A stretch of DNA of 50,862 bases from a virus (lineage: Duplodnaviria; Caudoviricetes): the IMG/VR virus record IMGVR_UViG_3300031566_000057, positions 1 through 50,862 of that record, one strand, 5' to 3'. Within the stretch, counting starts at the first letter, position 1, and every line of letters begins with the position of its first letter. Shown piece by piece: positions 8,241 to 44,967 of this stretch. The notes under the pieces are model-generated. The model saw nothing but the letters and a program-made list of their open reading frames with translations. It was not told the DNA's origin and made no database searches. A program made the position numbers and the translations under genes.

Positions 8241-9755
8241 ATGCCAATCACGATACAGCATGGTAATGTAGGTCGCTACACCAAGATGATGTACCGTCTT
8301 GGCAGAGTGGAGCGCGCGGATGCGGAGGAACTCCGCCAGCGGAAGCTCCAGGACCAGCAGGCCAAAGAAGAGAGAGAGTGGGGCCGGTGGCAGCAGAAGC
8401 AAGCTGCTGAACAGGAGGCGTGGAGGGGGCAGGAGGCTACTCGACAGGGAGGGCGCAGGGAACTCGCACAGTACGGGACCGATGTTGGCTTTGCGATGGA
8501 GGCGTATCGGCAGCGCGGGAGGGAAGGTGCGCAGGGCCGTGCGAGAGGATATGCCCTTCAAGACCAGAAGGCCAAGAGGGACAAGGAGACTGCTGAGGCC
8601 AATGCGGAACTCGCCATCTTCTCGTCTACGGGTCTCCTGGAAGCTATTGATATAGCCGACCCGATGATGGGGAGGCTGACTCGACAAGTCCTGCAAACTG
8701 TTCAACAGGGGAAGGTCAAGCCTTCTGACGCTGCAAGGTTTCTCCGGGGGAAGATGACACAGTTCAATACCATGTCGAAGGTTCAGGCCCAAAGGGCTAA
8801 GGCGGGAGAAGCCACTGAGGCGAAGGGGAAGAAGCTCAAGCTGACAACCACGAACACGAACCTGAAGGCGGATGTCAAGAGGACGCAGGGGAACATCTCT
8901 CTGCTCCAGAAGCTCACTGCTGAGGCCACGAAGGTGAAGCAGGCGCGCAAACAGATAGCAACGGCGCGGAAGAAATACGAATCGGGAATCGACAAGGAAA
9001 TGACCGAGAGTACGGCCAGGGACAAGAATCAGGCGGCCTTGGAGAAAGCTCAGGACGCGGAAGCAACATCACTGGCGGCGATTGGCGCTGGGATGGTCGC
9101 CCTTGGATTAGATGGGCAGAACCCAAAGGCGGTGGAGGCTTTCATTGCGGCCCCTCTCGTCCATATCGCTCAGGCACAACAGCAGCTCCAGCAGCAGGAA
9201 GGCGCTCTTGCTGAGAACGTCACACAACAAGGAGAAGCCGAGTTGGGTATCGAGGCTGCCCAAGATCCGACACTCGGACCCCCAACTGACTGGGCCGCCC
9301 AGCGCGAGGCACAGGGGGCACAATGGGCAGAGGCTGATGCACAGGCACCCGCCCAGCCCGTTCCTGTCGAACCCATGATGGGTCCAAGTGAACCCCAAAT
9401 GGGTCCAGAGCAACCGCCCGCAGCCGAACCCGAAATGGCCGGGGTTCCCGACCCCAGCACAGGATCGGAAGAGCAGATCGCCGCCTTTGTGGGCCGGGAC
9501 ACTACCGCCGACCTTGCTCGCAAGATGACGCTTCGGATCGGGGAGGCGGAGACCCGCCGGTGGATTGCCCAATACCTTCTGCGCAAGTCCCCAAGCGAGG
9601 GGATTCGGCGCGAGGCTTACAAGCGGATGCTGGGTATGGCGGCGATGGGGATGATTCCTCCCCTTCGGAAAGGACAGCTTGACCCTGAAGACGAGGAGCA
9701 GTTCGTGATCTTCATGCAGGCTATCGGACTCTTGAGGCCAGCAAGTGCCGACTGA
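8241..9755 (+). CDS. Putative ejection protein 2, coiled-coil
   Basis: 504 aa Gln/Ala/Glu/Lys-rich; middle gene of a small-medium-large trio. Confidence 0.5.
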   Translation: MPITIQHGNVGRYTKMMYRLGRVERADAEELRQRKLQDQQAKEEREWGRWQQKQAAEQEAWRGQEATRQGGRRELAQYGTDVGFAMEAYRQRGREGAQGRARGYALQDQKAKRDKETAEANAELAIFSSTGLLEAIDIADPMMGRLTRQVLQTVQQGKVKPSDAARFLRGKMTQFNTMSKVQAQRAKAGEATEAKGKKLKLTTTNTNLKADVKRTQGNISLLQKLTAEATKVKQARKQIATARKKYESGIDKEMTESTARDKNQAALEKAQDAEATSLAAIGAGMVALGLDGQNPKAVEAFIAAPLVHIAQAQQQLQQQEGALAENVTQQGEAELGIEAAQDPTLGPPTDWAAQREAQGAQWAEADAQAPAQPVPVEPMMGPSEPQMGPEQPPAAEPEMAGVPDPSTGSEEQIAAFVGRDTTADLARKMTLRIGEAETRRWIAQYLLRKSPSEGIRREAYKRMLGMAAMGMIPPLRKGQLDPEDEEQFVIFMQAIGLLRPASAD

Positions 9756-12700
9756 CCCAAAAGACCAATGGGAGTATTCGGCGGGGCGTCTCCTCAAACC
9801 GGAGACGTTTGACAAGCGGTTCTTCGTCACGACCCCCGGGCAGACGAGCATCGTGGATGTGGCGCGGGAGAAGTATGGACTTGTCCCGACGGACTCTATC
9901 CTCGATGTCGCCTATGAGAAGTATGGGTTGGTCCCCAAGGGGGGAAGACCTAAGACGGCTGCCGAGAAGGGCATTCTCTCGTCCTTCGGCCACGCCTTCG
10001 CGCGCCGCGCTATCGGCATGGTCGGGGCCTTGGCTCGGAGTGGCGCAAGAGAAACCCGGTTACTGCTGGCAGATCCCGAGGGGATGTTCGATCCGATCAG
10101 CGAATGGTCGGAGGAGACCCTTAGAGCGAATCCCCAGTGGGAGACCGGGAAGCCGGAAGCGATCCTCGATACCCTTACCAATCCTGCGGCTATCGCAGAC
10201 TTCATAGGCGAGCAACTCCCCTTCTACATGGGCGCTGCTGGTGCTGGGATAGCCGGTGGCCTCGCCGCCGGGCCGAGGGGTGCTACGGGTGCTGTTGTCG
10301 GCTTTACCGCTGCCGTTGAATCGGACGAACTTTATCAGGACCTCCGCAGTAGTGGTATCCCAGACAGTGACGCTCGCACAGCCGCCAACATCCACGGTGT
10401 TGTTGCCGGGCTGATCGAGAGCGTCCAGGTCTCTGAAACCCTTCGTTTGGCAGGCGTGAACCCGAGGCGCTTCACCTTGGGAGTGTTCCGCAGGGCGATG
10501 GCGCGGATGCCGAAGGGCGGGTCGATAGCGGCAGACGTGTTGTTGACGAGTTTTCGGGAGGGCGGGGAAGAGGTTCTCCAAGGCATATCCCGCGATATGA
10601 TGCAGAAGTACATGACCGAAGGAACCTGGGATGCTCTGTCTCAACTGGGGGATGAGGACTTCTGGAACCGCCGGGTCCAGGAAGGGATTGCGGGGTTCGG
10701 TGCTGGTCTGCTCTTGGGTGGACCCGCTGCCGCCATAGGTGTGATGCAGAAGCAAGAAGCCCAGCCCGAGTTGCCCCCGCCCGAACTGGCCGGAGCGGAA
10801 TGGCGCACAGAAGCGCTCCCCGACATCCCGGAACAAGTCAAGGCCGAAGTGGCTGCGGAGCCCGTCGTTGCGCCCGCAGAAGTCCAAGTAAAGGCCCCTG
10901 AGCCCCAAGTAGAAGCTCCTGATGTCCAAGTAGCTCCAATCCCCGCAGAAGCCAAGCCTACTGTCACCCAGAAAGCCAAGGCAGTCAGGGAAGCCAAGAA
11001 GACTGCCCATGAGGTAGCCAAGGAGGCCAAGAAGCGGGTAGAGGCTGAAACTGGTAAGCCGATGATCCTGCGGGACGTGACTTCGCATATCAACGAGGCC
11101 CTGAAAACTCTTGGTCTGACTCGCAAGGACATCACAATCAAATGGACGAATAAGGCCAGCGACATCAGCGCGGTGGGCAATACAATTACGCTTCCTGGCG
11201 TATTGCGTGGAGACAAACGACAGCTAGTTCGCAGCGTGGCACACGAAGCGAAGCACGTGCAACTCACCAAGACAGGAGAAGGGTTCGATCTGTCGGCAGA
11301 AGCGATTGAGACACTGGCCCGCCAAGCTGAAGATGTAGCCGAACAGAAACTCTTCGGCTCGCTGGAGGCCAAGAAGCGGGTAGAGGCTGCGCCGAAGAAA
11401 TATCTTCCGTCTGGGCTGTCTGAAGAAGCCACCAAGTTCAACACCGATGCTGACGCCTTGGAGGGTTACGCCTGGCGGCTCATGGGCGCAAAGGAGTTTG
11501 AGAGGCTCCAGGCCGGCGAGAAGGTCTACGGGGGTAAGGCTGCCGGTAAAGGCAACTTCCTTGCGCCAACTCCCCAGTCAGCCGCACAGTACAAGGCCAA
11601 AGGTAAAGTCTTGGTCGAGTTCGCCGGTGTGGAGATGGCTGAGGGGGAGACGGTTTCCAACAAGGTCGGATTGCCCAACGTCACCAGCGCCAAGCGATGG
11701 ACGGGAACGGAATGGGCGGCTGTTACTCCAGCAGAGGTCGCAGAACGCGATGTCAAAGCACCCGCAGAGGGGAAGCGACCGTGGCAACTAACACGTACCG
11801 AATACTATGCATTACGCGCCAAGCGGAAAGACACCGGGATTGGCGTAGGCTATTACGCTGGTGATGTCCACGCTCTCGCCAAGCGCCATGAAGCATCGGT
11901 TCGTGCGGCCGTCTCGCGCGGGCAACCCGTATCGTTGGAGGTGTTGGAGGATTACCGCGGCAAGGCGTGGGCGCATGCTGCGATTGTTGCACTCGAAGCC
12001 CCCGCTGAGGTCACAAAGCCTGAAGCAGAGGGCAAGCAGCCGTGGGAGATGACAGTAAAGGAACTAGACGCTGCTATTGGAGAGTCGAGCGAATCGAGGC
12101 GCGCGAGCGGCATAGAGCCGTGGATGGTGACGAAGCAGCAGGCGATAGATTACTGGCGGCTTCGGAATAAGAAAACCAAACAGAACAAGACCCACCTCGG
12201 CGGAGATCCAACAAAGACCCGCCCCGTAGAATTTATACATCTACGTGCCATCAAAGATGCCGTTGCTGAAGGCAAGCCCGTCCCCCGCTCTGTTCTCCAG
12301 GACTACGTGGGCGAGAAGTGGGCCGACGAAGCCCTTGCTCGGAAGCCAGCCCCGGCTGTCACAGCTCCTGTCACACCTACTGTCACAGAACAGGGGGAGT
12401 TGCAGGAAGCATACCAAGAGGCAGAGAAGACCGTCGAGGAGGTCAAGGCCAAGCCCCGGAAGCGCTTTGTCTCCGACGACGCTATGAACACGGCGGCGGA
12501 GAACATCAAGAAGAAACTCGGCAGCCTTCATATTGGTATCGACCCGACCATTCTCAAGGACATGGCCGTCTACGGTGTCGGTCTGGTCGAACGAGGTGCA
12601 ACTGAGTTTGCCGAATGGGCTGCGGAGATGGTCCGTGGGTTGGGAGAGTTCGTTGGACCTCACTTACAAGACATCTGGAAGCACATCCAGGCAGGCACGG

Positions 12701-14937
12701 TAGAACAAGCCCATGCCAGCATCGACCGGGCCATGGCGACCGGAGAAGTCACCAGCATCAAGAACGCGGCGGTGGATCAGGAGCGGGCCATTCTCGGACT
12801 CGGACCCGCAACCCACGGAGAAGCCGTTGAGTTTCAGACTGAGATAGACAAGGCACACGCCGACCCCGACAACCCCGTTAAGACTCGGAGACTCGTAGCG
12901 GAACTCCTCGGGCGGCCTCGACCGTTAGATGCGCAGGAAGATGCTGTTCTCTTCGTGGAACAGCGCCGTCTGACGACGGATGCCAGTAAACTCCGCGCGG
13001 ACTATATACAGGCCACGGAAGTCGGGCAGCAGGACCGTGCTTCTACTGCTGCACGGGTGCTGGAGCGGGTCGAGAAGGACCTGGAAGACCTCGGGGCCGC
13101 AGCCACACTCGCCGGGACCAAAAGCGCTCAAGGGCTCGCCATGCGGCGGGTGCTGGTCAAGGGGGACTACAGCCTCCTTACGATGACCCGCAAGGCGCGA
13201 ATGGCCCAGGGGGGCAAGGAGCTGTCCGAGAAGCAGGCCGCCGAGATCAAGGAACTCCACAACCAGCTCGCGGAAACCAACCGGCAACTGGGTCTGAGGC
13301 AGTCTGAGCTGGACCGGCGGGAAGCGAAGCGCAAGCCAACACCCCGGAACCGCCTCTTCACCAGGGCGAACAAGGACGCCGCCGTGCGTCGTATTCGGGA
13401 GAAGCTGGGTCGAGTCTCCGTGGGTGTCGATCCCACCATCCTCGCCGACATGACGATTGTGGGGGGCTACTACGTCGAGGCTGGGTTGAGGAACTTCGGG
13501 ATGTGGTCGGCCAAGATGATCTCCGATCTTGGGGAAAGCGCCAAGCCGCACCTGCGGGCTGTATGGGACAGGGTTCACGAAGAGCTGGACACGGCCCGCC
13601 GGGAGAAGAAGGAAGCCCGTCTCCAGCGTGGGATTGCCACGTATGAGGAACGATTGGCCCAGGGGGACTTCGAGACTCGGACCCGCGCACCTATCATCCA
13701 TGATGCGAAGGGCCGGAAGCTCCAATATGAGTACGACAGGGCTCGGTCCAAGTTCCATGAAGCCGTCCTTCGCTATCGGCGGAAGAACATGAGCCTCGCC
13801 GGGAAGGCCCTTGGTGCGGGGGCGGAGGTCATCAACACGACCCGCGCGCTGGTTACCAGTGTTGACGTATCCGCCGTGGGGAGGCAGGGGCTGTTCGCCG
13901 CGCTCTCTCACCCCATTATGACGCTCAAGAACTTCCCGCCCATGTTGCGGGCCATGCTCTCCGAGAAGAGGCGTCACGCCGTTGACTATGAGATCCTCCA
14001 GCGCCCGAACGCCGCGCTCTACAAGCGGGCGGGGTTGGCCCTGACCGAGCGGGGTAGTTCTCTGGCGAAGATGGAAGAGGAGTACATGAGCCGGTGGGCG
14101 CAGAAGATCCCCTGGGTTGCGGCGTCGGAACGTGCTTTTTCCACCTTCCTTAACCGGATGCGCGCGGACCTGTTCGATAGCTTGGTTGCTTCGCTGGGGC
14201 GCAACGGCGGTCAGGATATGACGCTAAACGAGGCCAAGGCCCTCGCCTTCTACGTGAACTGCTCCACTGGCCGGGGGTCTCTGGGCAAGCACGATTCAGC
14301 CCTGGTGACGCTCAACACGCTATTCTTCGCCCCTCGCCTGTTGGCCAGCCGGGTGCAGTATATCACCGGCGCTCCTCTCATGAGGGGGACGTGGCGGACC
14401 CGTCGCCTGCTGGCAAAGGAGTACGCCAAGTTCCTGATCGGGGTTGGTACGGTCTATGCCCTGTCGAGCATGATAGGAAGGCCCCCGGAGGACGACCCTC
14501 GGTCGAGCGAGTTCGGCAAGTTCCGGGTGGGTGATACAAGAATCGACCCCATGGGCGGCCTCTTACAGGTTCTTGTGTTCGGCACTCGGCTGATTACGGG
14601 CGAAACCAAGACCGGCAGGGGCAAGATTCATCCGATCCGCGGGGATGTCCCTTATGGTCGAGACGATGCGGCGGATGTGATATGGCGCTTCGTCCGGTCC
14701 AAGTTCGCCCCTGCCCCCAGCACGGTCGTCAACTTGCTCTCCGGGGAGAATGTGGTCGGCGAGCCCGCAACCGCAACCAGTCAGGCTGCACAACTGACGA
14801 TTCCTTTCAGCGTTCGGGATACTTACGAGGCCATGATCTCGGAAGGTGCGGGCAAGGGCTTGGCCCTGGGGATGCTGGCCGTTCTCGGGGTGGGGCTGCA
14901 AACGTACACGCAGAAGAAATCCAGGAAGCATAAATAG
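9745..14937 (+). CDS. Large ejection/polyvalent protein with zincin-like HExxH domain and internal repeats
   Basis: 1730 aa; Gly/Ala hydrophobic N-region, VAHEAKH, PW(Q/E/M)xT repeats, duplicated GxDPTIL.DM domain. Confidence 0.65.
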   Translation: MPTDPKDQWEYSAGRLLKPETFDKRFFVTTPGQTSIVDVAREKYGLVPTDSILDVAYEKYGLVPKGGRPKTAAEKGILSSFGHAFARRAIGMVGALARSGARETRLLLADPEGMFDPISEWSEETLRANPQWETGKPEAILDTLTNPAAIADFIGEQLPFYMGAAGAGIAGGLAAGPRGATGAVVGFTAAVESDELYQDLRSSGIPDSDARTAANIHGVVAGLIESVQVSETLRLAGVNPRRFTLGVFRRAMARMPKGGSIAADVLLTSFREGGEEVLQGISRDMMQKYMTEGTWDALSQLGDEDFWNRRVQEGIAGFGAGLLLGGPAAAIGVMQKQEAQPELPPPELAGAEWRTEALPDIPEQVKAEVAAEPVVAPAEVQVKAPEPQVEAPDVQVAPIPAEAKPTVTQKAKAVREAKKTAHEVAKEAKKRVEAETGKPMILRDVTSHINEALKTLGLTRKDITIKWTNKASDISAVGNTITLPGVLRGDKRQLVRSVAHEAKHVQLTKTGEGFDLSAEAIETLARQAEDVAEQKLFGSLEAKKRVEAAPKKYLPSGLSEEATKFNTDADALEGYAWRLMGAKEFERLQAGEKVYGGKAAGKGNFLAPTPQSAAQYKAKGKVLVEFAGVEMAEGETVSNKVGLPNVTSAKRWTGTEWAAVTPAEVAERDVKAPAEGKRPWQLTRTEYYALRAKRKDTGIGVGYYAGDVHALAKRHEASVRAAVSRGQPVSLEVLEDYRGKAWAHAAIVALEAPAEVTKPEAEGKQPWEMTVKELDAAIGESSESRRASGIEPWMVTKQQAIDYWRLRNKKTKQNKTHLGGDPTKTRPVEFIHLRAIKDAVAEGKPVPRSVLQDYVGEKWADEALARKPAPAVTAPVTPTVTEQGELQEAYQEAEKTVEEVKAKPRKRFVSDDAMNTAAENIKKKLGSLHIGIDPTILKDMAVYGVGLVERGATEFAEWAAEMVRGLGEFVGPHLQDIWKHIQAGTVEQAHASIDRAMATGEVTSIKNAAVDQERAILGLGPATHGEAVEFQTEIDKAHADPDNPVKTRRLVAELLGRPRPLDAQEDAVLFVEQRRLTTDASKLRADYIQATEVGQQDRASTAARVLERVEKDLEDLGAAATLAGTKSAQGLAMRRVLVKGDYSLLTMTRKARMAQGGKELSEKQAAEIKELHNQLAETNRQLGLRQSELDRREAKRKPTPRNRLFTRANKDAAVRRIREKLGRVSVGVDPTILADMTIVGGYYVEAGLRNFGMWSAKMISDLGESAKPHLRAVWDRVHEELDTARREKKEARLQRGIATYEERLAQGDFETRTRAPIIHDAKGRKLQYEYDRARSKFHEAVLRYRRKNMSLAGKALGAGAEVINTTRALVTSVDVSAVGRQGLFAALSHPIMTLKNFPPMLRAMLSEKRRHAVDYEILQRPNAALYKRAGLALTERGSSLAKMEEEYMSRWAQKIPWVAASERAFSTFLNRMRADLFDSLVASLGRNGGQDMTLNEAKALAFYVNCSTGRGSLGKHDSALVTLNTLFFAPRLLASRVQYITGAPLMRGTWRTRRLLAKEYAKFLIGVGTVYALSSMIGRPPEDDPRSSEFGKFRVGDTRIDPMGGLLQVLVFGTRLITGETKTGRGKIHPIRGDVPYGRDDAADVIWRFVRSKFAPAPSTVVNLLSGENVVGEPATATSQAAQLTIPFSVRDTYEAMISEGAGKGLALGMLAVLGVGLQTYTQKKSRKHK

Positions 14938-16535: not shown

Positions 16536-17363
16536 CTACAGCCGGTTGACGGCCTCCCTGCCAAACTCAGGAGACAGGTGCGCGTAGTATTTCTCGGTCA
16601 TCGTGATACTGGAGTGGCCCAGGAGCTTGGAAACAACGCCTATCCTCTCCCCCCTGGCGACTAACAGGCTGGCGAAAGTCCGTCTCAGGTCCCTCCAGCC
16701 CCCGCCCGCCCTTGCCATCTTGGGTATCTGCCGCTTCATGTCTACCAGCATCCTGCCCCACGTCCTCTCCGACAATCCCCCGAAGATCCTATCCTCAGGG
16801 TCCCCAGGTCCCAGGCGGGCCAGCAAGGCCCCTAGCCGGGGGTGTACAGGCACCGAACGGACTAGACCGGTCTTGGTAGCCTCATGGGTGCCAAAGACCA
16901 GCACAGGCCCCCTGGATGTCTCTTGCAGCGAACTCCAGCGGAGGTTCCTGATCTCGCTCATGCGCCCTCCAGTCAGCAAGGCAGCCAAGGCAGGTGGGCA
17001 GGTCTGCTCCGCGATCTCCAGGGCCTTTGCGAACTCCGCATCAGTCAGGTAGATGATGGCTTTTCTCACCACTTTCGGCCTCTCCATTCTCTTGGCGGGG
17101 TCTGTGGACAGTTGGTTTCTGGAAATGAGCCAGCCGGCGAACCGGGCGATCATGTCGAACTTATGGCGTAACGTCTGGCGGGACATGCCTTTGTCTTCCT
17201 GACAGGCAAGGTAGTGGTCGATTGCTTCGGGGGTGATGTCAGAGGCCATGTAAACCCCGGCGCTGGAGACAAAATCCTCCAGAACCCGGATTTTCTGCGT
17301 GAGATGACGGGGGCAGTTTCGTCCCCTCTCGCTATCCTTGAAACGGGCGATCAGCGTTACCAC
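16536..17363 (-). CDS. int: Tyrosine recombinase/integrase (start uncertain: GTG 17363 or ATG 17510)
   Basis: TGGRMSEI, ATKTG, RDLRRTFAS, LGHSSITMTEKYYAH. Confidence 0.9.
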   Translation of the reverse strand: MVTLIARFKDSERGRNCPRHLTQKIRVLEDFVSSAGVYMASDITPEAIDHYLACQEDKGMSRQTLRHKFDMIARFAGWLISRNQLSTDPAKRMERPKVVRKAIIYLTDAEFAKALEIAEQTCPPALAALLTGGRMSEIRNLRWSSLQETSRGPVLVFGTHEATKTGLVRSVPVHPRLGALLARLGPGDPEDRIFGGLSERTWGRMLVDMKRQIPKMARAGGGWRDLRRTFASLLVARGERIGVVSKLLGHSSITMTEKYYAHLSPEFGREAVNRL

Positions 17364-17462
17364 AGGAACCCCAGGCCCCGACCCCGGCTGATCGGAGTAT
17401 CGGCCTCCCCCGGACTGACTTGAATGGAAAGCGAGATTGCCGAAAGTTTTTTTGGTTTCCGG

Positions 17463-17491
17463 TTGACTTGGGGGGATTGGCTGCCGATAAT
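17463..17491 (+). promoter_or_regulatory. sigma70 promoter of rightward early operon
   Basis: TTGACT-17 bp-GATAAT, T-tract upstream, inverted repeat GCTTCATGG/CCATGAAGC just downstream. Confidence 0.8.
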
Positions 17492-17548
17492 GAAGGGTAA
17501 CAGGCTTCATGGCATCAGCCCATGAAGCTGAAGACAAAGGAATTCGCC

Positions 17549-17830
17549 ATGAGCACAACTTGCAGAGCGGACAAACGGCGGCGGGCGGCTAGGGTTTCGG
17601 CGGATTCCTCTAGCCTGCCCGCTGCTTTTGTAGCGGCCGGGGCAGGGACACGGAGAGTTGAGACTGGGCACGGCTGCCCGCCCCGGCTGCGTGTAGTCCT
17701 GTGGCGTGGTCACTACCTGATAACCCGAGGACATCTGACTCCTCTCGGGCATCCTGCCGGGCCGCCCCCTTACTTCCATAGCGGCATGTCTATTCTAGCA
17801 CTGACGGATAGCTTTGGCAAGGAGAACTGA
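17549..17830 (+). CDS. Possible small leader protein overlapping structured RNA
   Basis: AAAGGA RBS; stop lies in the GGAGA(A)(C/T)TGAGCCATG junction shared with following genes. Confidence 0.35.
   Translation: MSTTCRADKRRRAARVSADSSSLPAAFVAAGAGTRRVETGHGCPPRLRVVLWRGHYLITRGHLTPLGHPAGPPPYFHSGMSILALTDSFGKEN
17578..17631 (+). terminator. Terminator-like hairpin in early leader
   Basis: GCGGCGGGC-GGCTAG...CTAGCC-T-GCCCGCTGC then TTTTGT. Confidence 0.55.
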
Positions 17831-19306: not shown

Positions 19307-19567
19307 ATGACAACCGCATTACAAGAGCTACAGGTCCTTGGGATCAAGAACATCGACCACATGGAGGGCGAGCTTCTGCCGGACATGGAAGCCATCGGAA
19401 GGCTTGCTGGCGCAGCCAAAGACAAGGGCAGAGACTTTGTGTTTGAAGGGTGCCTGCATCACAAACCGGCAGGGGCCTTGCTGATGTGCGTGTTTTGGTA
19501 CGGCTACCAGCGCCTTCTCTGCCGGGAAATGGAAGACGCGGTGACGGAACAGGAGTTGCCGAGATGA
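19307..19567 (+). CDS. Hypothetical protein
   Basis: GGAGAGG RBS. Confidence 0.55.
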   Translation: MTTALQELQVLGIKNIDHMEGELLPDMEAIGRLAGAAKDKGRDFVFEGCLHHKPAGALLMCVFWYGYQRLLCREMEDAVTEQELPR

Positions 19568-19902
19568 GCGAGAAATGCCCCAAGTGCGGGAAGAGGGGCC
19601 TCGGGACGATTCTGGATGGTCTGTGCGCGTGGTGCTGGCGAGATCGCTGGGCCGAACGGTGCTGTAATCTCGCCATAGAAATTGCCAAGCGGAAGGATGA
19701 ACTTGCCGACCTCCGCCGCCAGCTTGCCACGGCCAAGGAGCAGATCACCAAGCTGCGGGAGGCGTTGCGGGAGCATCGTCACACGGAAAAGTGCTTTAAC
19801 TACGCAGTCAAGACGGCTCTGAAGAGCGGCTGTTACTACTGTATCAAGGAGTGCGCCGACTCTCGACGCGCCGCCCTTGCCGACACGGAGCCCCCGAAAT
19901 GA
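19564..19902 (+). CDS. Zn-finger plus coiled-coil protein
   Basis: CPKC...CAWC then heptads; ATGA coupling. Confidence 0.55.
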   Translation: MSEKCPKCGKRGLGTILDGLCAWCWRDRWAERCCNLAIEIAKRKDELADLRRQLATAKEQITKLREALREHRHTEKCFNYAVKTALKSGCYYCIKECADSRRAALADTEPPK

Positions 19903-19982
19903 GACTCTGGCAGGCGCTACTGCTACTGTCCCTGGTCGTCACGGGGCTGATGATCTACGCGATTCTATCAGGTGGAAACTGA
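19899..19982 (+). CDS. 27-aa single-TM peptide (not in ORF track)
   Basis: MRLWQALLLLSLVVTGLMIYAILSGGN; ATGA coupling, GGAG upstream. Confidence 0.45.
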   Translation: MRLWQALLLLSLVVTGLMIYAILSGGN

Positions 19983-20054
19983 GTGGGCGCTAGGCCGTGG
20001 GCTGGGCGGGTCTCCCTCCGCCCGCCTCCCTGCGGCCGATGAAGGAGAAGTGAC

Positions 20055-20609
20055 ATGGACGAACGGGAAGAGAAACGCATTGCGGCAGGTGTGTTAAGGG
20101 TACTGGCCGAAGAGTACGCGGCTTTGGATTGGCCTGCCCATGCGGACGCCTGTAACAAGATTGCCCACAAGCTCGACCCGCCCGCTCCCCCTCTGCCGAA
20201 GCCGAAGTTCAAGGATGGGCAGTGGGTGACAACGAAGCATGGGACTGTGGGACAGATCATCAGCTGGTGTGGGCTTGAGCGACAGTACCACGTAGACGTG
20301 CGAGGACCTATCGGTCGTTGGTATCGAGAGAGTCACCTCTCCCCCTGGTTCGAGCCGGGGACGCTGGTGACATCAGAGACGGACAAGGACAGCCTCGGGT
20401 ACATCGACTCTGCTGGGCGGGTCGCGTGCTTGCCGGACGGATCGCTACACCACTTCGCTCGCGGCTGGAAACGAGCTGACTTTTCCGACGTGGAGCGCTG
20501 GCATCGGCAGTATTACCACTCTGCGACTAGCACGATAATGGCCTGGAACAAACAACTCCACGGCCAGCCCGCCGATGAGGGCGGGGCGACAGACAAGACA
20601 ACTGAATAG
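20055..20609 (+). CDS. Hypothetical protein with SH3/KOW-like PKFKDGQWV motif
   Basis: AAGGAG RBS. Confidence 0.6.
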   Translation: MDEREEKRIAAGVLRVLAEEYAALDWPAHADACNKIAHKLDPPAPPLPKPKFKDGQWVTTKHGTVGQIISWCGLERQYHVDVRGPIGRWYRESHLSPWFEPGTLVTSETDKDSLGYIDSAGRVACLPDGSLHHFARGWKRADFSDVERWHRQYYHSATSTIMAWNKQLHGQPADEGGATDKTTE

Positions 20610-20615
20610 AGAACA

Positions 20616-20811
20616 TGCTGGTGTGCGCTGGAGCGGAGGCGAAAGCCGTTGATGCGATGAAGGCGCGCGGTACTGGCGTCCTGCTACTGATAGTCGCGAC
20701 CGACAGGAGCGGCAAGCCGACGACAACTCGGCGTTCCACTGTGGCAGATTATGAGATCACGCGAGCCGAAGAAGCCCACGAGCGCCAGGGGCATAGTAGG
20801 CCACACCAGCA
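20616..20811 (+). ncRNA. Candidate structured ncRNA directly 5' of the tRNA
   Basis: Perfect 10-bp closing stem TGCTGGTGTG/CACACCAGCA; inner stems CTGGCGT/GCGCCAG, GGC-GAAA-GCC, GCCGA/TCGGC. Confidence 0.5.
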
Positions 20812-20814
20812 CCT

Positions 20815-20888
20815 GCGGCGGTAGCTCAAGTGGCAGAGCGCGTCCCTTATAAGGGCGAGGTTTGCAGGTTCAACTCCTGCCCGCCGCA
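20815..20888 (+). tRNA. tRNA-Ile, anticodon UAU (20848-20850), no encoded CCA
   Basis: Acceptor GCGGCGG/CCGCCGC, D arm GCTC/GAGC, anticodon arm CGTCC-CTTATAA-GGGCG, T arm GCAGG-TTCAACT-CCTGC, discriminator A. Confidence 0.92.
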
Positions 20889-20891
20889 ATC

Positions 20892-21040
20892 GAAGCGCGG
20901 GACGTTCCCGTGCGAGTTTCAGAGTCTCACAGCATGAAAGGTCCGTGGCAGTTGTAAGCAAAACCTGAACGGATAGTTATTCCAAGGCCCCCTCCGCGAA
21001 GCGAACCATGAGGGGGTCCGCAGACAACCCCGAAAGGGCA
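20892..21040 (+). ncRNA. Candidate structured RNA 3' of the tRNA
   Basis: Hairpins GCGCGGGA/TCCCGTGC, TTTCA/TGAAA, TCCGT/ACGGA, GGCCCCCTC/GAGGGGGTC, CCC-GAAA-GGG. Confidence 0.4.
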
Positions 21041-21052
21041 AGGAGATAGACC

Positions 21053-21916
21053 ATGAGTACCGAACCCATCTGGATACCGACGCCGGAGCCCGGAATCTAC
21101 CCGGGAATCCCTGCGGAGACGTACCACAAGTGGGACGCCATGAGCAATAGCTGGCTTAAGCTGCTGGCCGATGCGAGTCCGAAGCACTTCCACTACCGGC
21201 GGGGGCATCCCAAGGCCCCCACGAAGTCCATGCTGACGGGTACCTTGCTGCACAAGCTCTGTCTGGAAAGGCATCATTTCCCTGAGAGCTACGCCGTGGC
21301 CCCCGTAGGATTGCAGCGGACGGCCACGAAGAAATGGGCGGCGTTTCTGGAGGCGAACGCGCCAAAAAGGTGCATCACGGCCACAGAGTTCGCCCAGGCT
21401 TGTGGCATGGCCGATGGGATTATGGGGCATGGGGACGCCTCCACCCTCCTGATGCAGGGCGAGCCGGAAGTCAGCATTGTCTGGGACAACGAGGAGTTCG
21501 GGGTCCGCTGCAAGCTCCGCCTCGACTATCTGGCCAGGGCGGACAAGATGATCGGGGACATCAAGTCCACAAGCGATGGTGACGACCACGCCGTTTCCTC
21601 CTCGGTCAACAAGTACGGCTATCATCGCCAAGCAGGTTTCTACCTGGATGGGACGAAGGCGGTAGGGCTAGACATCGAGAGGTTCATCCTGATCTTCGTC
21701 GAGAGCGAGCCTCCCTACGACGCCTACGCCGCCGTTCTCGACACCAACGCCCTCCAGATCGGGCGGCACGAGTACAAGAACGCCCTGCGCATCTACCAAC
21801 ACTGCGTCAAGACGGGGCAATGGCCCGGTCGGCACGAGACGGACGTGCCCGCCATCCCCCTGCCCCGCTGGGTACTTCAGTCCTATGGAATCCGAGCAGA
21901 AGGAGTCCAGATATGA
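21053..21916 (+). CDS. RecE/exonuclease VIII-like PD-(D/E)xK nuclease (DUF3799-type)
   Basis: YH..DAMSNSWLK, GTLLHKLCLE, EVSIVW, CKLRLD, DIKST, YGYHRQAGFY. Confidence 0.85.
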   Translation: MSTEPIWIPTPEPGIYPGIPAETYHKWDAMSNSWLKLLADASPKHFHYRRGHPKAPTKSMLTGTLLHKLCLERHHFPESYAVAPVGLQRTATKKWAAFLEANAPKRCITATEFAQACGMADGIMGHGDASTLLMQGEPEVSIVWDNEEFGVRCKLRLDYLARADKMIGDIKSTSDGDDHAVSSSVNKYGYHRQAGFYLDGTKAVGLDIERFILIFVESEPPYDAYAAVLDTNALQIGRHEYKNALRIYQHCVKTGQWPGRHETDVPAIPLPRWVLQSYGIRAEGVQI

Positions 21917-22683
21917 GCGCCAACGGGAAACCCAAGTTGGGCCTCATCTACGAACGAATGGCGCGGATCATGGAACAGGTCCCGGCGATTGGCAAGGATG
22001 GTGAGAACAAGGTACAGAACTTCCGATTTCGCTCCATTGACCAGGTGTACGACGTGCTGCACCGGCTCCTGGCCGACAATCACGTCTTCTTCACGCCCCA
22101 CGTCGTTTCGCAGGAACGGCAGGTCTTGGACCGGCTGGACAAGCAGAGCGGGAAGAAGGTCGGGCATACGGTGTTGACGTGCCTGAGCGTCAAGTACATC
22201 TTCCACTGTGCTGATGACGGCTCCTGCCTGGAGGTCGGGCCGATCCCCGCAGAGGCGGCAGACAGCGGGGACAAGGCCAGCGCCAAGGCCCTGAGCATGG
22301 CCCTGAAGTACGTCCTCCTCCAGACCTTCTGCATCCCCATCCAAGCCGAGGCGGACTTCAAGACCGAGCCTGACGAGTCCGGGGCTGATGCGGCGCAAGC
22401 CCTGGCGGAGAAGCGCCTGAAGGGCAACGGCGGCGAGGACGAGGTGGCGAAGGCGTTGCAGGCCAAGTCACAGGCCGAGTGCAACAACTTCTCCCTCTCG
22501 CCATCGGACTTGGGCAGCCTCAAGCGACAGGTGTTTGAGATGGGTGCTCGAAGCCCCAAACAGGCCCTCGACCTGTTGAACAATGTTTCCATGCGGATCA
22601 TGGAAGACGGGGCGGGCATGGTATTGGGCGTCCACCTGGAAGAGATACCCAGGGATGGCGCACGAAAACAACCTGCGGCGTAG
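21913..22683 (+). CDS. ERF-family single-strand annealing protein
   Basis: IGKDGENKVQNFRFRSIDQV and DSGDKASAKALSMALKY...FCIP; coupled to the exonuclease. Confidence 0.85.
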   Translation: MSANGKPKLGLIYERMARIMEQVPAIGKDGENKVQNFRFRSIDQVYDVLHRLLADNHVFFTPHVVSQERQVLDRLDKQSGKKVGHTVLTCLSVKYIFHCADDGSCLEVGPIPAEAADSGDKASAKALSMALKYVLLQTFCIPIQAEADFKTEPDESGADAAQALAEKRLKGNGGEDEVAKALQAKSQAECNNFSLSPSDLGSLKRQVFEMGARSPKQALDLLNNVSMRIMEDGAGMVLGVHLEEIPRDGARKQPAA

Positions 22684-29261: not shown

Positions 29262-29462
29262 ATGACGAACACAGAATCAGCATGGCAGAGGCTCACTGAG
29301 ATCCAGAGGCGCAGGGTAAAGCTGTACCTCATGGGCTTCTCACAGAGGCAGATCGCAGCGACAGAGGGGGTGACGCAACAGGCAATCTGGGATACCCTGA
29401 CAAGGGCCTACAAGAAAATACCTGCTTTAAGGACAGTGGTTTACGACTGGCAGAGACTCTAA
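29262..29462 (+). CDS. sigma70 region-4/LuxR-like HTH regulator; candidate late activator
   Basis: LTEIQRRRVKLYLMGFSQRQIAATEGVTQQAIWDTLTRAYKKI. Confidence 0.75.
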   Translation: MTNTESAWQRLTEIQRRRVKLYLMGFSQRQIAATEGVTQQAIWDTLTRAYKKIPALRTVVYDWQRL

Positions 29463-29817: not shown

Positions 29818-30123
29818 TCAGGGCTTGGCCTTGGCGATCGCGGCACGGGCAGCTATGCAGGCTTTCTTCACAGCAACCATGCCCGCCGAGGCGCTGTGCG
29901 TGGAGCAGGCATCAGAGGCCACGGTCGCAAGATTCTCGCACGCTGTCAGCAGATCATCATGGGCGTTGCAGGCACGGGCAATGAACCGCATGTAAGCATC
30001 GCCCTGCTCGATGAAGGCCCTGATATTGCCTCCGTGGCTGTTAGAGCAGACATGATGGCCGTTGGCGTCGAGGATTTCGCGGCCCTCGGATCGCCAGGGA
30101 AGATTCAACGCTGTCTTGCTCAT
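29818..30123 (-). CDS. Small early phage protein (PW...FIARACNAHDDLL...ARAAIAKA family)
   Basis: Widespread phage motif set; AAGGAG RBS. Confidence 0.7.
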   Translation of the reverse strand: MSKTALNLPWRSEGREILDANGHHVCSNSHGGNIRAFIEQGDAYMRFIARACNAHDDLLTACENLATVASDACSTHSASAGMVAVKKACIAARAAIAKAKP

Positions 30124-30329
30124 GCTGTTGCTCCTTTCTTGGCCTTGGCGATAGCGGCGAGGGTGCCCTCAAAGAAGGCGCAAAACTCGCCGTCGCTTGA
30201 CTTGCTCAAGAAGCCCTGCGCTGCTTGGTGTGCATCACAGGGGAAGTAATCAAGCCACATAGGATGTTGGCTAAAACACCAGTGGCAACATTGGCCGCAC
30301 GACTGTTTGGGCTGTTCGGGTTCGCTCAT
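30120..30329 (-). CDS. Small Cys-rich early protein with AAIAKAK tail
   Basis: CGQCCHW..C..C; AGGAG RBS. Confidence 0.55.
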   Translation of the reverse strand: MSEPEQPKQSCGQCCHWCFSQHPMWLDYFPCDAHQAAQGFLSKSSDGEFCAFFEGTLAAIAKAKKGATA

Positions 30330-30526
30330 CTTCTGCTCTCCTGACCGCGTTGGAGGACATCCTCGACGTGGTGGATTTGATTTTCCAAGTCTCGGCGCAG
30401 TTCTGCGCGCCAGTCGGCTGCCCGGTTGATGGCCACCCACAAGGCCGCTCCAGTGCTGTCCAGTTGGTCTTGAAGGGCCTGGATTCTGTCCTCTAGGGCA
30501 CTGATCTGCTCTGCTGTCTTGCTCAT
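30326..30526 (-). CDS. Small coiled-coil early protein
   Basis: GAGGAG RBS; heptads. Confidence 0.6.
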   Translation of the reverse strand: MSKTAEQISALEDRIQALQDQLDSTGAALWVAINRAADWRAELRRDLENQIHHVEDVLQRGQESRR

Positions 30527-30672
30527 GGTGTTGCTCCTCATCTGCGGGCCTGCTGGCCCTGGGTCACTGCCCTGCCATTTGATTCTGCACGGTTCTCAGT
30601 CAAATGGCCGTCAAATAGGACCATCCCGGCCCATCCCCTCACCCTCCGCAGAGGGATCGGGGGCGGGTCGCG

Positions 30673-30861
30673 CTAGTTGACCAGCTCGGCCGTGCCTACT
30701 ATGTTTCCGTTGAGATTACAGAGCGGAACTTCGCCCAGCCTTCCCAACCTTGACCAGTCGCTGGCCAATGTGTCCGCCAGTTCTCGGAGGATGCGGGCGA
30801 CCTCAACGCCACGGTGATCCTCGAACGCTGCATTGTCGGTGTCGATCTTGATCTGCAACAT
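30673..30861 (-). CDS. Conserved small phage protein (DNAAFED..EVARILR..NGN.VG)
   Basis: Recognisable motif; AAGGAG RBS. Confidence 0.7.
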   Translation of the reverse strand: MLQIKIDTDNAAFEDHRGVEVARILRELADTLASDWSRLGRLGEVPLCNLNGNIVGTAELVN

Positions 30862-30867
30862 AGCTCG

Positions 30868-31065
30868 TCACTCCTTCTCTGTGCTGTTGGCCTTGGCGAT
30901 AGCGGCGCGGGCTTCGTGCCTGATGGCCCTGCGACAGCGCCGGCGGATTAACTGTGTCAGAATGCGGTCAAGTACGGCCCTCGCCTGTTCTGCCTCATCA
31001 TTGCCAATACTGGCCAACTGCCCGAGAGCGGCAATCGCAGTTTCCAGGGCCGTTTCGCGGGTCAT
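30868..31065 (-). CDS. Small early protein with ARAAIAKA tail
   Basis: AAGGAG RBS in repeated leader. Confidence 0.6.
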   Translation of the reverse strand: MTRETALETAIAALGQLASIGNDEAEQARAVLDRILTQLIRRRCRRAIRHEARAAIAKANSTEKE

Positions 31066-31087
31066 AGCTGTGTCTCCTTGTGCTGGG

Positions 31088-31312
31088 TTAGTCACTTGTC
31101 GGGCGCTTGATAGCGCGGACACTCTCGATCTCGTCAAGCTCATAGACTGTTCGGTCCACGAACTCCCAGGCGCACGGCCGCAGCTCTGATCGCGTCAGCT
31201 TACGTGGCACCCAAAACTCGAACGGTGTCCCAAGGGCGACAGCGCGATACCACTGACCGGCGACCATCCCGTCGGTGGTGTTGTAGCTCCACGGCGTTGG
31301 ATAGGTTGTCAT
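31088..31312 (-). CDS. Small early protein
   Basis: AAGGAG RBS in repeated leader. Confidence 0.6.
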   Translation of the reverse strand: MTTYPTPWSYNTTDGMVAGQWYRAVALGTPFEFWVPRKLTRSELRPCAWEFVDRTVYELDEIESVRAIKRPTSD

Positions 31313-31335
31313 AGCTCGTCTCCTTGTGCTGTAGG

Positions 31336-31509
31336 TTAGTCGTGTAGTGATGGATACCAGCGACGAGCAAACCTAGCTGCCGCTGCGGGGCTGTCGCCTT
31401 CGTCGTAGAACTCGGTCAGGATGTACTCCAGCGAGGGCAGGTCGTCAGGCTCAAGATTTCTGACTGCATGGAGGTACGCCGTGATCCACTTTGTGCGTGT
31501 CTGTTCCAT
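31336..31509 (-). CDS. First small early protein of the leftward operon
   Basis: AGGAG RBS; FYDEGDSPAAAA. Confidence 0.6.
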   Translation of the reverse strand: MEQTRTKWITAYLHAVRNLEPDDLPSLEYILTEFYDEGDSPAAAARFARRWYPSLHD

Positions 31510-38860: not shown

Positions 38861-40192
38861 ATGAAAGTCACCCTCATTGCAGGGAAGTATTTCAATTCCT
38901 GGGAAGCCCTTGGACTGGGGTACATCGGGGCGTACCTGAAGCGGCACTGTGATGTGGAATTGAACTTCTTCCATCCGAACTTCGACTCGGACCATGCCAT
39001 TCTCGAAGGCACCGCGGGCACCGATATTTGCATGTTCTCCTGCACCTCTCCGGCAATAGATTATGCCTTGACGCTGGCCGGAGCGATCAAGTGCCGGGAT
39101 CCCAAAGTTCGCACTGTGTTCGGTGGGTATCACCCATCGGCCCTGCCGGGGGATGTTAAACAAGCCGGGTTTGTCGATTACGTGGTTGTCGGCGAGGGCG
39201 AAGTTCCGGCCGAGGCAATCGTTCGGGGTTATCCATATTGGCGTCTCGACGGCCGCCGCATGTCTTTCGACGAACTCTCCTGGCCCGACCGGGAACTGAT
39301 CCGCAACGAGCGCCACATCGCCGTCGCGGAGAAGGATACGGGGCTCCGCATCACCTCCTTCCAAAGTCGTAGAGGTTGTCCATACGGGTGTAAGTATTGC
39401 CTGGACGGCCAGAAGGTGATGTACAAGGGCAAACCCTGCGAGCGCGACATCAAGGACCTATTAACCGAGATCGACTCCGTAGCATACAAGTACCGACTCG
39501 ACCTCATCAAGTTCTGCGATCCTACGTGGAACACCAATCCGCAGTACGTGAAGGACTTCTGCAAGGAAAAGATCCGCTGGAAGCTGCACATCCCCTTCTT
39601 TGCGAACATCCACGCCCGTAATGGGGATCAGGAGATGTTCGACATGATGGCCGAGGCGAACTGTACAACCATCGGCTTGGGGGTGGAGACGGGTTCCGAG
39701 CGTATCTTGCAGCAGATGGGCAAGGGAACCACGAAGGATGACGTGCGCGGAACCGTCCGCATGGCGAAGAACTCTGGCATTGGCATTCGGGGCTACTTTC
39801 TGACAGGGATGCCGGATGATGACAACGAGTCTCTTCAGGAGACGATGGACTTCGCGGACGAGTTGGAACTGGACGAATACGGGTTCACCATCCTCTGTCC
39901 CTATCCGGGGACCGCCTTTTATGCGGAAGACCCGGAGAGGTTCAAGGACGTGAACTGGGAAGGGGCTGACGAGTACCGCAACGACTTCTGGCGCACTAAG
40001 TACCTCACGAACGCGGAATTAGTTGCATGGCAGGACAGGTTGATGGAGCGCTTCTGCAAGAAGCTCACGGGACGGAACAAGACAGTAGGGAAAGGGACAG
40101 GAAATGAAGGTAGTGGTGATTCCCCCGGAGCAACCGGGTGCACTCCCGACTCCGACGGAGAAGGAACTGGTAGCCCTTCTGCAAGGCGCTGA
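38861..40192 (+). CDS. B12-binding radical SAM enzyme (class B methylase-like)
   Basis: LGLGYIGAYL, VFGGYHPS, VGEGE, RGCPYGCKYC, GVETGS, PYPGT. Confidence 0.9.
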   Translation: MKVTLIAGKYFNSWEALGLGYIGAYLKRHCDVELNFFHPNFDSDHAILEGTAGTDICMFSCTSPAIDYALTLAGAIKCRDPKVRTVFGGYHPSALPGDVKQAGFVDYVVVGEGEVPAEAIVRGYPYWRLDGRRMSFDELSWPDRELIRNERHIAVAEKDTGLRITSFQSRRGCPYGCKYCLDGQKVMYKGKPCERDIKDLLTEIDSVAYKYRLDLIKFCDPTWNTNPQYVKDFCKEKIRWKLHIPFFANIHARNGDQEMFDMMAEANCTTIGLGVETGSERILQQMGKGTTKDDVRGTVRMAKNSGIGIRGYFLTGMPDDDNESLQETMDFADELELDEYGFTILCPYPGTAFYAEDPERFKDVNWEGADEYRNDFWRTKYLTNAELVAWQDRLMERFCKKLTGRNKTVGKGTGNEGSGDSPGATGCTPDSDGEGTGSPSARR

Positions 40193-40961
40193 AGGCGTAG
40201 TCGCGGGGACGGAGCAGTATACCCGAACCGTACTCTCGCAGTGTCCGAAGCTTCGCGTCATCTCTCGCATGGGCATCGGGGTTGATAACATCTGTCTGGA
40301 ATACTGTAAGAACCGCGGCATTACAGTCATGGCGGTTCCCAATGGCCCGACGCAGGCCGTGGCAGAACACACCATCGGGCTCATGCTCGCCCTGCTCAGG
40401 CATACCGTGGACAACCACGCAAGTATGTTGGCGGGGGCGTGGGAGCCGAAGATCGGGAAGCTGCTCTGCAACCAGACTGTAGGCGTTATAGGGCTCGGGC
40501 GCATTGGCTGTACGGTGGTCCGACTTCTCCGGGCGTTCGGAGCGAAGGTCATCGGGAACGAGATTGAGGAGAATCAGTTCAATGCTTCTCTTGGGCTGGC
40601 ATGGACCTCACCCATCGACCTGCTTCTGATGTCGAACATCGTCTCCTTGCACGTGCCGCTCACGGAGTCCACCCGGCACATGATTGACGATGTGGAGTTG
40701 GCCTGGATGCGGCCCGGCACGCTCCTTGTGAACACGGCACGCGGGTATGTGGTTAATGAAGGGGCGGTGTATAGTGCCCTCCAATCCGGTCATCTCGGGG
40801 CTTACGCAGTAGACGTGTTTGCGCACGAGCCCTATGCGAGTTTTCTGTGCGGTTGTCCCAACGTGTTGATGACTCCCCACATCGCCGGATGCACGGAAGA
40901 GACCTGGGAAATGATGCGCGAGACGGCTATCCGTCATTGTAACGAGGCTCTCAATGGGTAA
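40104..40961 (+). CDS. D-2-hydroxyacid dehydrogenase (SerA-like)
   Basis: GIGVDNI, AVAEHT, GLGRIG, NTARG, DVFAHEP, TPHIAG. Confidence 0.9.
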   Translation: MKVVVIPPEQPGALPTPTEKELVALLQGAEGVVAGTEQYTRTVLSQCPKLRVISRMGIGVDNICLEYCKNRGITVMAVPNGPTQAVAEHTIGLMLALLRHTVDNHASMLAGAWEPKIGKLLCNQTVGVIGLGRIGCTVVRLLRAFGAKVIGNEIEENQFNASLGLAWTSPIDLLLMSNIVSLHVPLTESTRHMIDDVELAWMRPGTLLVNTARGYVVNEGAVYSALQSGHLGAYAVDVFAHEPYASFLCGCPNVLMTPHIAGCTEETWEMMRETAIRHCNEALNG

Positions 40962-41301
40962 AGGAAGCAAGCGACGGCCCGGCAACACCGAAGCATACCG
41001 ACGGGGCCACAAGAGAGCTTTTGGGACTGGGCCGCGAGACTCCACCAGTGGCACCTTTGTACTGCGGAATGGCACTCTCGTACCTGGCAGAGTAAACAAG
41101 TGCGACAGCAAGAATATCGAGAGCCTTGCTGCGGGGGTACAGGCGGAACAAGCCCCACAGGCCCGGAAGGACATTGCTGAGGCAAAGCTGTCGGGGGTGA
41201 AGGTACTACCTAACGGCAACTACGTCTTTGCCACCCGTCGGGACAAGCTGCGGTTTCTGAAACACGCCAAGATGCACGATAGGGACGAAGTGAGAGGATA
41301 G
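40954..41301 (+). CDS. Small basic phage protein
   Basis: MGKGSKRRP start; SLAAGV..Q...G..VF..R motif. Confidence 0.6.
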   Translation: MGKGSKRRPGNTEAYRRGHKRAFGTGPRDSTSGTFVLRNGTLVPGRVNKCDSKNIESLAAGVQAEQAPQARKDIAEAKLSGVKVLPNGNYVFATRRDKLRFLKHAKMHDRDEVRG

Positions 41302-41304
41302 GGA

Positions 41305-43536: not shown

Positions 43537-43607
43537 AGAGGGCGCGGTCTATAGCGCGGCGTCTGGAGACGGGGAACTGATATGTCGTTACTGCGAGTGG
43601 CCGAAAG

Positions 43608-44378: not shown

Positions 44379-44967
44379 CTGTCAGGGGGACTACATCGAC
44401 TCGCACGATGTAGTCATTCGCATTGCCAACGCACTTCCGATCCCCGAACACCTTCGGTGTGATGTTGGGTCACGAACGGATGTCTTGTATACCAGCTTCT
44501 ACAGTGGACCGAATCCCCAGGAATGTAACCCAGTGGCCCCGGAGATGTGGAAGGCAAATGGGGTGCAATGGGTGTGCCTTTCGTCAAAGTTTGACGACCC
44601 CTATATCTGGCCGGGATTGAATAGGTTCGTCGCCTTGAATGCCGGCCGACTCCCATTGTACATGGTTCCTCCAGACGACTGCCGGGTGCTGGAGGCCGAA
44701 CTAGAGTGTAAGCCAAATACCGGGTTCGTCGCCATCTGGGATTCGCTGCGGTTTGATATTCAGAGCCTTTATGTGACGGGGATTTCCTTCTTTCGGGGTG
44801 GGTATCTGACAGAGTACCGCCCGATGAATGAAGAGGAAGCGATGGCATTCTTGGGGAAAGGGGAACACAAACAACCGCCGCAGATTGCTAAGATGCGCAA
44901 GTTAGTCCAGACGGATAGCAGGCTGACGGTGGATGCAACCCTTCAGGCGATCCTGGACGAAACATGA
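44302..44967 (+). CDS. GT29-like sialyltransferase
   Basis: Sialylmotif L-like VIVGPA...GDYIDSHDVVIRI..LP....DVGSRTD; S-like PNTGFVAI; VS-like His; TTG start. Confidence 0.8.
   Translation: MEETYADYVRGKRLVIVGPAPQIRGSCQGDYIDSHDVVIRIANALPIPEHLRCDVGSRTDVLYTSFYSGPNPQECNPVAPEMWKANGVQWVCLSSKFDDPYIWPGLNRFVALNAGRLPLYMVPPDDCRVLEAELECKPNTGFVAIWDSLRFDIQSLYVTGISFFRGGYLTEYRPMNEEEAMAFLGKGEHKQPPQIAKMRKLVQTDSRLTVDATLQAILDET

Follow-up and report, generated by a model that had tools for sequence, protein, structure and literature searches.

Some RNAs are cut from tRNA precursors, such as "species 1 and 2" of the T4 tRNA cluster and the 3′ETS-leuZ spacer RNA of E. coli, and in the MALAT1/mascRNA system it is RNase P that makes the 3′ end of the upstream RNA. 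Stable or processed RNAs typically have paired ends. The mRNAs of type I toxins, hok among them, fold back on themselves through long-distance pairing between their 5′ and 3′ regions, and in the msr-msd RNA of retrons, the a1 and a2 inverted repeats close about 150–250 nt. GOLLD and ROOL RNAs are often found near tRNAs and in prophages, and ROOL has a size of about 581 nt (PMC5737381). At the level of DNA, invertons with short inverted repeats are known, and viral ones have been suggested (10.1101/2023.03.11.532203, PMC13501310).

The locus described here lies in a virus record of IMG/VR that was analysed as a whole (the window: 50,862 nt, rated 100% complete), and identical contigs were found in three soil metagenome DNA runs, which are possibly the source samples. 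The window phage is a temperate tailed phage, because PHROG and Pfam scans find an integrase, an early operon, replication genes, terminase, portal, and head genes (Table 1). Within the early operon, between the gene for a 184-aa ORFan protein and the only tRNA gene of the genome, a sequence-only reading had proposed an unrecognised multibranch RNA of about 196 nt, closed by a 10-bp helix and released by RNase P cleavage of the tRNA. Of this proposal, the closing helix has survived comparison with a relative, where it is kept with compensatory changes, while the multibranch fold of the interior is unshared.

The element resembles GOLLD and ROOL in its phage setting and its tRNA neighbour, ending as it does 3 nt before a tRNA-Ile gene in an integrase-bearing phage, but at 196 nt it has the wrong size, it lacks a conserved interior fold or junction architecture, and it matches no Rfam model, so that identity with either RNA was rejected. 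With the RNAs cut from tRNA precursors, it shares, in outline, a putative co-transcription with the tRNA, an end that would be set by processing, and paired termini; it differs from them in its unconserved interior and in being known from sequence alone. The likeness to invertons of the fimS type consists of short perfect inverted repeats, a segment of a couple of hundred base pairs, and a tyrosine recombinase in the genome, but neither a second orientation (in contigs) nor an internal promoter was seen here, and the arms abut a tRNA within an operon. As in hok, again in outline, the 5′ arm in the window covers the start codons of an open reading frame (ORF69) and pairs near the 3′ end; however, ORF69 has no transmembrane-like toxin character, the unit of the relative has no ORF, and, unlike in hok-type systems, we know of no antisense RNA for the element. 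Finally, retrons are similar in size and in having a closing stem of terminal inverted repeats that differ between systems, but scans of the window phage (60 proteins with PHROGs, 64 with Pfam) and of the seven proteins encoded next to the element (with both collections) found no reverse transcriptase.

Table 1. The element, its neighbours, and the genes that characterise the phage, with positions in the window.
Feature	Position	Strand	Basis or remark
Tyrosine integrase	16536–17558	minus	PHROG and Pfam scans; 3 kb from the element
Rightward early operon of small ORFans		plus	PHROG and Pfam scans
Gene for the 184-aa ORFan protein	20055..20609	plus	ORF list; stop TAG 20607–20609
A-rich 5′ block, GACAAG...TG[A/C]ATAGAGAACAT	20592..20616	plus	Kept in L083 and L084
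ORF69, 69 aa (67 aa from GTG 20621)	20615..20824	plus	ORF list; codon usage
5′ arm of the closing helix, TGCTGGTGTG	20616..20625	plus	Inverted-repeat search; comparison with the relative
176-nt interior (body of ORF69)	20626..20801	plus	Same length in L084 4665–4840
3′ arm of the closing helix, CACACCAGCA	20802..20811	plus	Ends 3 nt before tRNA G+1
tRNA-Ile, anticodon UAU	about 20815–20888	plus	ARAGORN; Rfam RF00005, 60.9 bits
DUF3799/exonuclease VIII-like PD-(D/E)XK nuclease	21053–21916		PHROG and Pfam scans
Erf annealing protein	21913–22683		PHROG and Pfam scans
Replication genes, small and large terminase, portal, major head protein			PHROG and Pfam scans

What the sequence-only reading had seen directly in the letters is there. 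The perfect 10-nt inverted repeat is present with 176 nt between its arms, it spans the gap from the upstream stop codon to the tRNA, and the inner helices that had been listed, namely CTGGCGT/GCGCCAG (with one G.U pair), GGC-GAAA-GCC, GCCGA/TCGGC, TCCTG/CAGGA, and CTGCTAC/GTGGCAG, can all be read in the sequence. Of the ATG at 20615, 2 nt fall in the 5′ arm, which also contains the alternative GTG start at 20621 in full. In the window alone, neither the helix nor the fold exceeds chance. Perfect 10-nt inverted-repeat pairs with a spacer of 3–300 occur 16 times in the whole window, against 18.6 ± 6.1 expected from 40 Markov simulations, and an apparent clustering of such repeats near 20 kb was ruled out, as it was not seen at k = 9. 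The minimum free energy of the 196-nt RNA is −76.4 kcal/mol, compared with −72.4 ± 4.3 for dinucleotide shuffles (z −0.92), with 30 of 200 shuffles folding as well or better; the opposite strand of the segment gives a z of −0.75, and the interior alone one of +0.54. In isolation, the segment is predicted to form the closing helix with a probability of 0.95, which drops to 0.66–0.70 with 100–200 nt of flanking sequence and to 0.00 when 20055–21052 is folded in one piece.

Comparison with known families and mobile elements was equally sparing. An Rfam 15 scan (E ≤ 10 over 19500–22000; gathering score over the whole window) matched the tRNA and, below threshold, one model on the opposite strand of the tRNA; the GOLLD and ROOL models were included, and neither matched. 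A MITE-like mobile element was rejected, since the exact-arm pattern has 0 matches in IMG/VR, the element has one copy in the genome, and no direct repeat of the kind expected from a target-site duplication flanks the arms in the window. In 596 Gb of genomes, the same pattern gave 34 matches with unrelated interiors, against a rough chance estimate of ~17. The ornate inner helices are what GC-rich, probably coding, sequence yields by chance, which makes the locus a cautionary case: the single feature that is kept was picked out by comparison with a relative and not from the window alone.

The window phage is, as far as these searches reach, nearly an orphan. The 184-aa protein has a single relative cluster (P0005, 244 aa), with 34% identity over 68% of the query, which is carried by two JGI metagenome contigs, L083 and L084, from two samples. 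Given that the two contigs are identical over their last 400 nt, they count as one independent relative; both end at the same base (L084 4854), 1 nt past the 3′ arm, which may reflect a break in assembly, the end of a genome, or a variable junction. According to tblastx and blastn, the window and L084 have a collinear module in common, which encodes a Zn-ribbon-like protein and a small membrane peptide besides the 184/244-aa protein. The gene for the 184-aa protein is the last of this small early module, which L083/L084 share; the rest of L084 is organised differently. The element adjoins the module on its 3′ side, in two temperate soil phages that are different in other respects. Searches of IMG/VR with ORF69 and with the 184-aa protein found no relatives, and the two-protein alignment found nothing in IMG/VR or in GTDB genomes. 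One partial match to P0005 in IMG/VR (L082) proved to be unrelated, as did a low-GC phage (L085). Among cultured phages, blastn with 20000–21100 found tRNAs only, the spacer of L084 gave matches at E = 1 only, and tblastn with P0005 gave none. A search of IMG/VR for the anticodon-arm pattern of the tRNA returned 0 matches. For the exonuclease, 179 relatives were found in IMG/VR; the best 80 of the 179 are all at or below 32% identity, and their loci have a tRNA in 0 of 80 cases and no similarity to the region.

Neither ARAGORN nor Rfam finds a tRNA in L084, and a candidate tRNA there was accordingly dropped. As a separate observation, L084 4603–4623 (also present in L083), between the 244-aa gene and the shared block, is identical in 19 of 21 positions to 20863–20883 of the window, that is, to the T arm and the start of the 3′ acceptor of the tRNA-Ile. 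This tRNA-like stretch has a local score of 32, and the highest scores among shuffles were 27 to 31 (0/200 per test); it may represent the relic of a tRNA on the far side of the unit.

The last collinear blastn HSP pairs L084 4634–4653 with window 20597–20616 (18/20 identical), and within the A-rich block, the 11-mer ATAGAGAACAT is identical in the window and in L083/L084. In the window, the stop of the 184-aa gene and the start (ATG) of ORF69 both overlap the block, which in L084 lies at least 66 nt past the stop of the 244-aa gene. The 11-mer is not repeated in the window beyond chance, with 6 sites at up to two mismatches against 5.76 expected. In both phages, the block runs directly into the 5′ arm of a long-range helix, and the arms of the L084 helix, ATCCCGCGCCG(TG)/(CG)CGGCGCGGGAT, form 11 perfect pairs, or 13 with one U.G. 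When the two helices are aligned from their inner ends, 10 of 10 pairs hold in both phages despite the different helix sequences: in 6 of them both partners differ between the phages, in 1 a single partner does (A to G, giving U.G), and 3 are the same, a count of compensatory changes that is drawn from two sequences only. The same C.C and G.G mismatches terminate both helices, at the inner boundaries GTG-CG ... GGC-C[A/G]C (hyphens at the boundaries), and the interior between the arms measures 176 nt in both. In L084, the transcribed strand has U.G as the imperfect pair, where the other strand would have C.A.

How often such a helix arises without selection was estimated by counting pairs minus half the G.U, with simulated helices starting within a few nucleotides of the motif and spanning 100–320 nt. 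A helix of at least 12.5 anchored at the motif appears in 0.03% of 3,000 L084-like simulations (P = 0.0003), and one of at least 10 in 1.6% of window-like simulations. In a control on real sequence (1.06 Mb), 2 of 1,725 motif-like sites outside the family, with up to 3 mismatches, reach 12.5, and 24 reach 10. IMG/VR contains 17 loci that combine the motif with GTGCG, which we regard as chance loci; 16 of the 17 could be scored, the remaining one running off its locus, and the best reached 9.0. The best look-alike among them (L121) is antisense to a coding gene and was set aside. No discount for multiple testing was applied, as the sole available relative is the only one that was tested.

We therefore take the frame, meaning the block and the closing helix, as conserved between the two sequences, and we consider it probable that the terminal helix is real and under selection. 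It is highly improbable that the two inverted repeats are unrelated coincidences in GC-rich DNA and that the segment is a plain spacer or leader. Such an explanation would agree with the chance frequency of 10-nt inverted repeats in the window, with the 24 of 1,725 control sites that reach the window's score, and with the exact-arm genome matches around unrelated interiors; however, the helix stands directly after a shared 11-mer, only 2 of the 1,725 controls reach the L084 score, and both the interior length and the inner boundaries are the same.

Nothing comparable was found inside the helix. In an ungapped comparison, the two interiors are identical at 54 of 176 positions (P 0.17), or at 39 of 176 when one is reverse-complemented, and global and local alignments are no better than those of shuffles; the MAFFT alignments of the two units were unusable for structure. 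The gapless RNAalifold consensus of −13.95 compares with −14.16 ± 3.32 for rotated controls, 46% of which equal it. Covariation, of the kind that the sequence-only reading called for, is thus suggested for the closing helix (both partners differ in 6 of 10 pairs, in two sequences only), and the interior does no better than its rotated controls. The L084 domain with its helix folds at a z of −3.10, with 0 of 200 shuffles as stable, and the L084 interior alone gives −1.34 (other strand −1.84), so most of the fold signal in L084 is due to the closing helix. Each of the six reading frames of the L084 unit contains stops, the coding scores of the unit are negative, and its interior is predicted to be non-coding.

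With a fold energy no better than shuffles in the window and an interior unshared with the relative, a multibranch or pseudoknotted interior is not supported. It follows that the original view, a discrete trans-acting multibranch ncRNA with a functional interior fold that RNase P would release, is very unlikely. The covarying closing helix and the L084 domain z of −3.10 speak for it, together with paired termini, which are typical of stable RNAs. That GOLLD and ROOL lie near tRNAs and in prophages (PMC5737381) is a further point on its side. Yet the interior z scores are +0.54 in the window and −1.34 in L084, neither structure nor sequence of the interior is shared, the L084 signal is mostly that of the closing helix, and there is no Rfam match at E ≤ 10 besides the tRNA.

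An interior of fixed length and free sequence, with no shared structure, fits spacing at the level of DNA at least as well as it fits RNA. The arms could then be recombinase sites, as in a switch of the fimS or inverton type, or protein-looping sites; they would change together since both have to fit the same protein, and the 176-bp spacing would be kept for geometry. We consider this unlikely, while recognising that several observations suit it: the arms are perfectly identical (10/10 in the window, 11/11 in L084), the interior is exactly equal in length, with unrelated sequence and no shared or significant fold, a spacing with a free interior that is better accounted for in this manner than by RNA, and a tyrosine recombinase is encoded 3 kb away on the minus strand. 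Invertons with short inverted repeats, including the suggested viral ones (10.1101/2023.03.11.532203, PMC13501310), provide a precedent. Against DNA inversion, the contigs of the three soil runs are identical over 20000–21300, with no variants, and contain no joint or strand-switching piece, which is weak evidence as contigs only were compared. In addition, there is no promoter-like site inside the segment; no invertase-type serine recombinase was found among 60 proteins compared with PHROGs and 64 with Pfam, and the only recombinase resembles a phage integrase. The L084 interior is unlike that of the window in either orientation, and the inverted form of the window segment was rejected as a source of a second ORF, as it gives merely 42 aa. 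Should the element turn out to be a DNA switch, the early operon of this phage would contain a very small inverton.

The interior in the window is also the body of ORF69. In line with the sequence-only reading, no GGAG-type ribosome-binding site, of the kind present in many other genes of the window phage, precedes either ATG 20615 or GTG 20621, and the frame runs into the tRNA gene, where its stop codon lies (20822–20824), so that RNase P processing would leave a non-stop message for ORF69. The start is 5 nt past the stop of the 184-aa gene, and gene callers predict ORF69 with the GTG start. With training on 18 long genes of the window phage, the codon log-odds of ORF69 comes to 0.178 bit per codon, which corresponds to the 15th percentile of true in-frame 69-codon windows, lies above 99.3% of off-frame windows, and exceeds all 203 spurious open frames of 50–110 codons that overlap real genes (maximum 0.170). 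Among 2,979 random open frames from an order-2 Markov model, 0.77% score at least as high, as do 0.67% of 300 region shuffles that stay open. GC by codon position is 0.70/0.54/0.68 in ORF69 and 0.60/0.48/0.70 in phage genes. The codon read by tRNA-Ile(UAU), ATA, accounts for 60 of the 435 Ile codons counted in 19 genes of the window phage, and one ATA is found within ORF69, at codon 26.

Protein-like conservation of ORF69 is absent, for it has no credible homologue and the unit of the relative is non-coding. A search of 5.8 billion clusters returned ORF69 itself only, and HMMER against 1.84 billion representatives returned itself and one WD40 protein; homology to the latter was rejected, as its E of 1.8e-5 adds up the scores of six near-identical repeats, 23.5–25 bits each, and ORF69 has no Pfam match to support it. 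There was no match in Pfam, PHROGs, NCBIfam, PDB sequences, or the ESM Atlas, and a single-sequence AF2 model (pLDDT 58, pTM 0.19) is uninformative. ORF69 is, on the strength of these comparisons, specific to the window phage. One could still regard it as an ordinary small ORFan gene, translated by coupling to the upstream gene, with repeats that have no function of their own, and its gene-like codon score and GC by codon position, its start 5 nt past the upstream stop, and its prediction by gene callers are in keeping with that. We find this decidedly unlikely, given that ORF69 lacks a Shine–Dalgarno sequence and stops inside the tRNA, is without family, PDB, or Atlas match and has a poor AF2 model, and that no frame of the homologous L084 unit is free of stops and its coding scores are negative; the conservation of the helix, with a chance probability of about 1e-3 or less, would also go unexplained.

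Our tentative explanation, held with somewhat less than even confidence, is that the block and the helix close a free 176-nt insert and act in RNA, as part of the 5′ leader of the tRNA. Selection on a folded nucleic acid is suggested because the arms change together while the pairing, the inner boundary, and the single-stranded 5′ block are kept. RNA is favoured because the unit lies inside a same-strand operon, because it ends 3 nt before the tRNA, with a U at position −1, because the sole imperfect pair is a U.G on the transcribed strand, and because stable or processed RNAs usually have paired ends. Within 20400–21100, this operon has neither a promoter-like nor a terminator-like site. In a polycistronic early transcript, the helix would pair both ends of the leader segment of tRNA-Ile(UAU). 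RNase P would cut 3 nt past the 3′ arm and an endonuclease might cut within the single-stranded A-rich block, and the two cuts would delimit a piece of roughly 200 nt with paired, protected ends. Alternatively, the helix could serve as a stalk for processing or for the control of translation. In the window, its 5′ arm covers the ATG and GTG of ORF69, so that it would also hold ORF69 shut, and a ribosome terminating 5 nt upstream could open it.

Several points count against an action in RNA. The window fold is no better than shuffles, and the closing helix is gone from the predicted ensemble when the upstream gene is folded in; 10 bp is short for RNase III, and a helix that begins at −4 could hinder rather than help RNase P. 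There is one independent relative, and its contigs stop 1 nt past the 3′ arm. With two members, the element is a candidate motif rather than a family, and no described family fits. If the frame is real, it would amount to a cis-element or small RNA, linked to a phage tRNA, of a kind not yet described, and it would show phages packaging a variable insert beside a tRNA, with an end defined by tRNA processing. It would be a long shot to go further and see in it a new class of tRNA-linked phage RNA of roughly 200 nt, with ends in a covarying helix, a 5′ end set by the block, a 3′ end set by RNase P, and a free interior of fixed length. Were this true, the arrangement would suit an RNA that differs from phage to phage and acts as a decoy, as a sponge, or in a guide-like manner, and it might work with the KOW/Tudor-like 184-aa protein, the two travelling as one module.

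The 184-aa protein itself has no match in Pfam, PHROGs, or NCBIfam. Its AF2 model (pLDDT 65.9) combines an N-terminal helical hairpin with small beta-barrels, and a Foldseek search with this model gave no match at E ≤ 0.001; weak matches to KOW/Tudor folds (Spt5, NusG, L24, SGF29) were obtained, with a best E of 3.2e-3. The 244-aa protein of the relative carries an extra PEFKVGDW repeat in comparison. On the other side of the tRNA, the 163-nt spacer (20890–21052) contains a GC-rich hairpin, GGCCCCCTC...GAGGGGGTCC, near 20985–21020, which has no U tract, and the fold z of the spacer is −1.50.

Elsewhere in the window, some features were observed that are independent of the element. A sigma-70 region 4 domain (Pfam E 1.8e-6) is encoded in a 66-aa protein at 29262–29462, adjoining a block of small ORFs on the minus strand (29818–31509). 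At 9745–14937, a 1,730-aa protein without a Pfam match contains a DarB-like antirestriction stretch (PHROG 10089, E 8e-26). Finally, a Pfam scan of 38861–46329, between the genes for the portal and the major head protein, revealed a sugar or modification cluster that includes a B12-binding radical SAM enzyme, a D-2-hydroxyacid dehydrogenase, a cytidylyltransferase, and a methyltransferase, as well as a GT2 glycosyltransferase within a 743-aa protein and a GT29 (sialyltransferase-like) protein.
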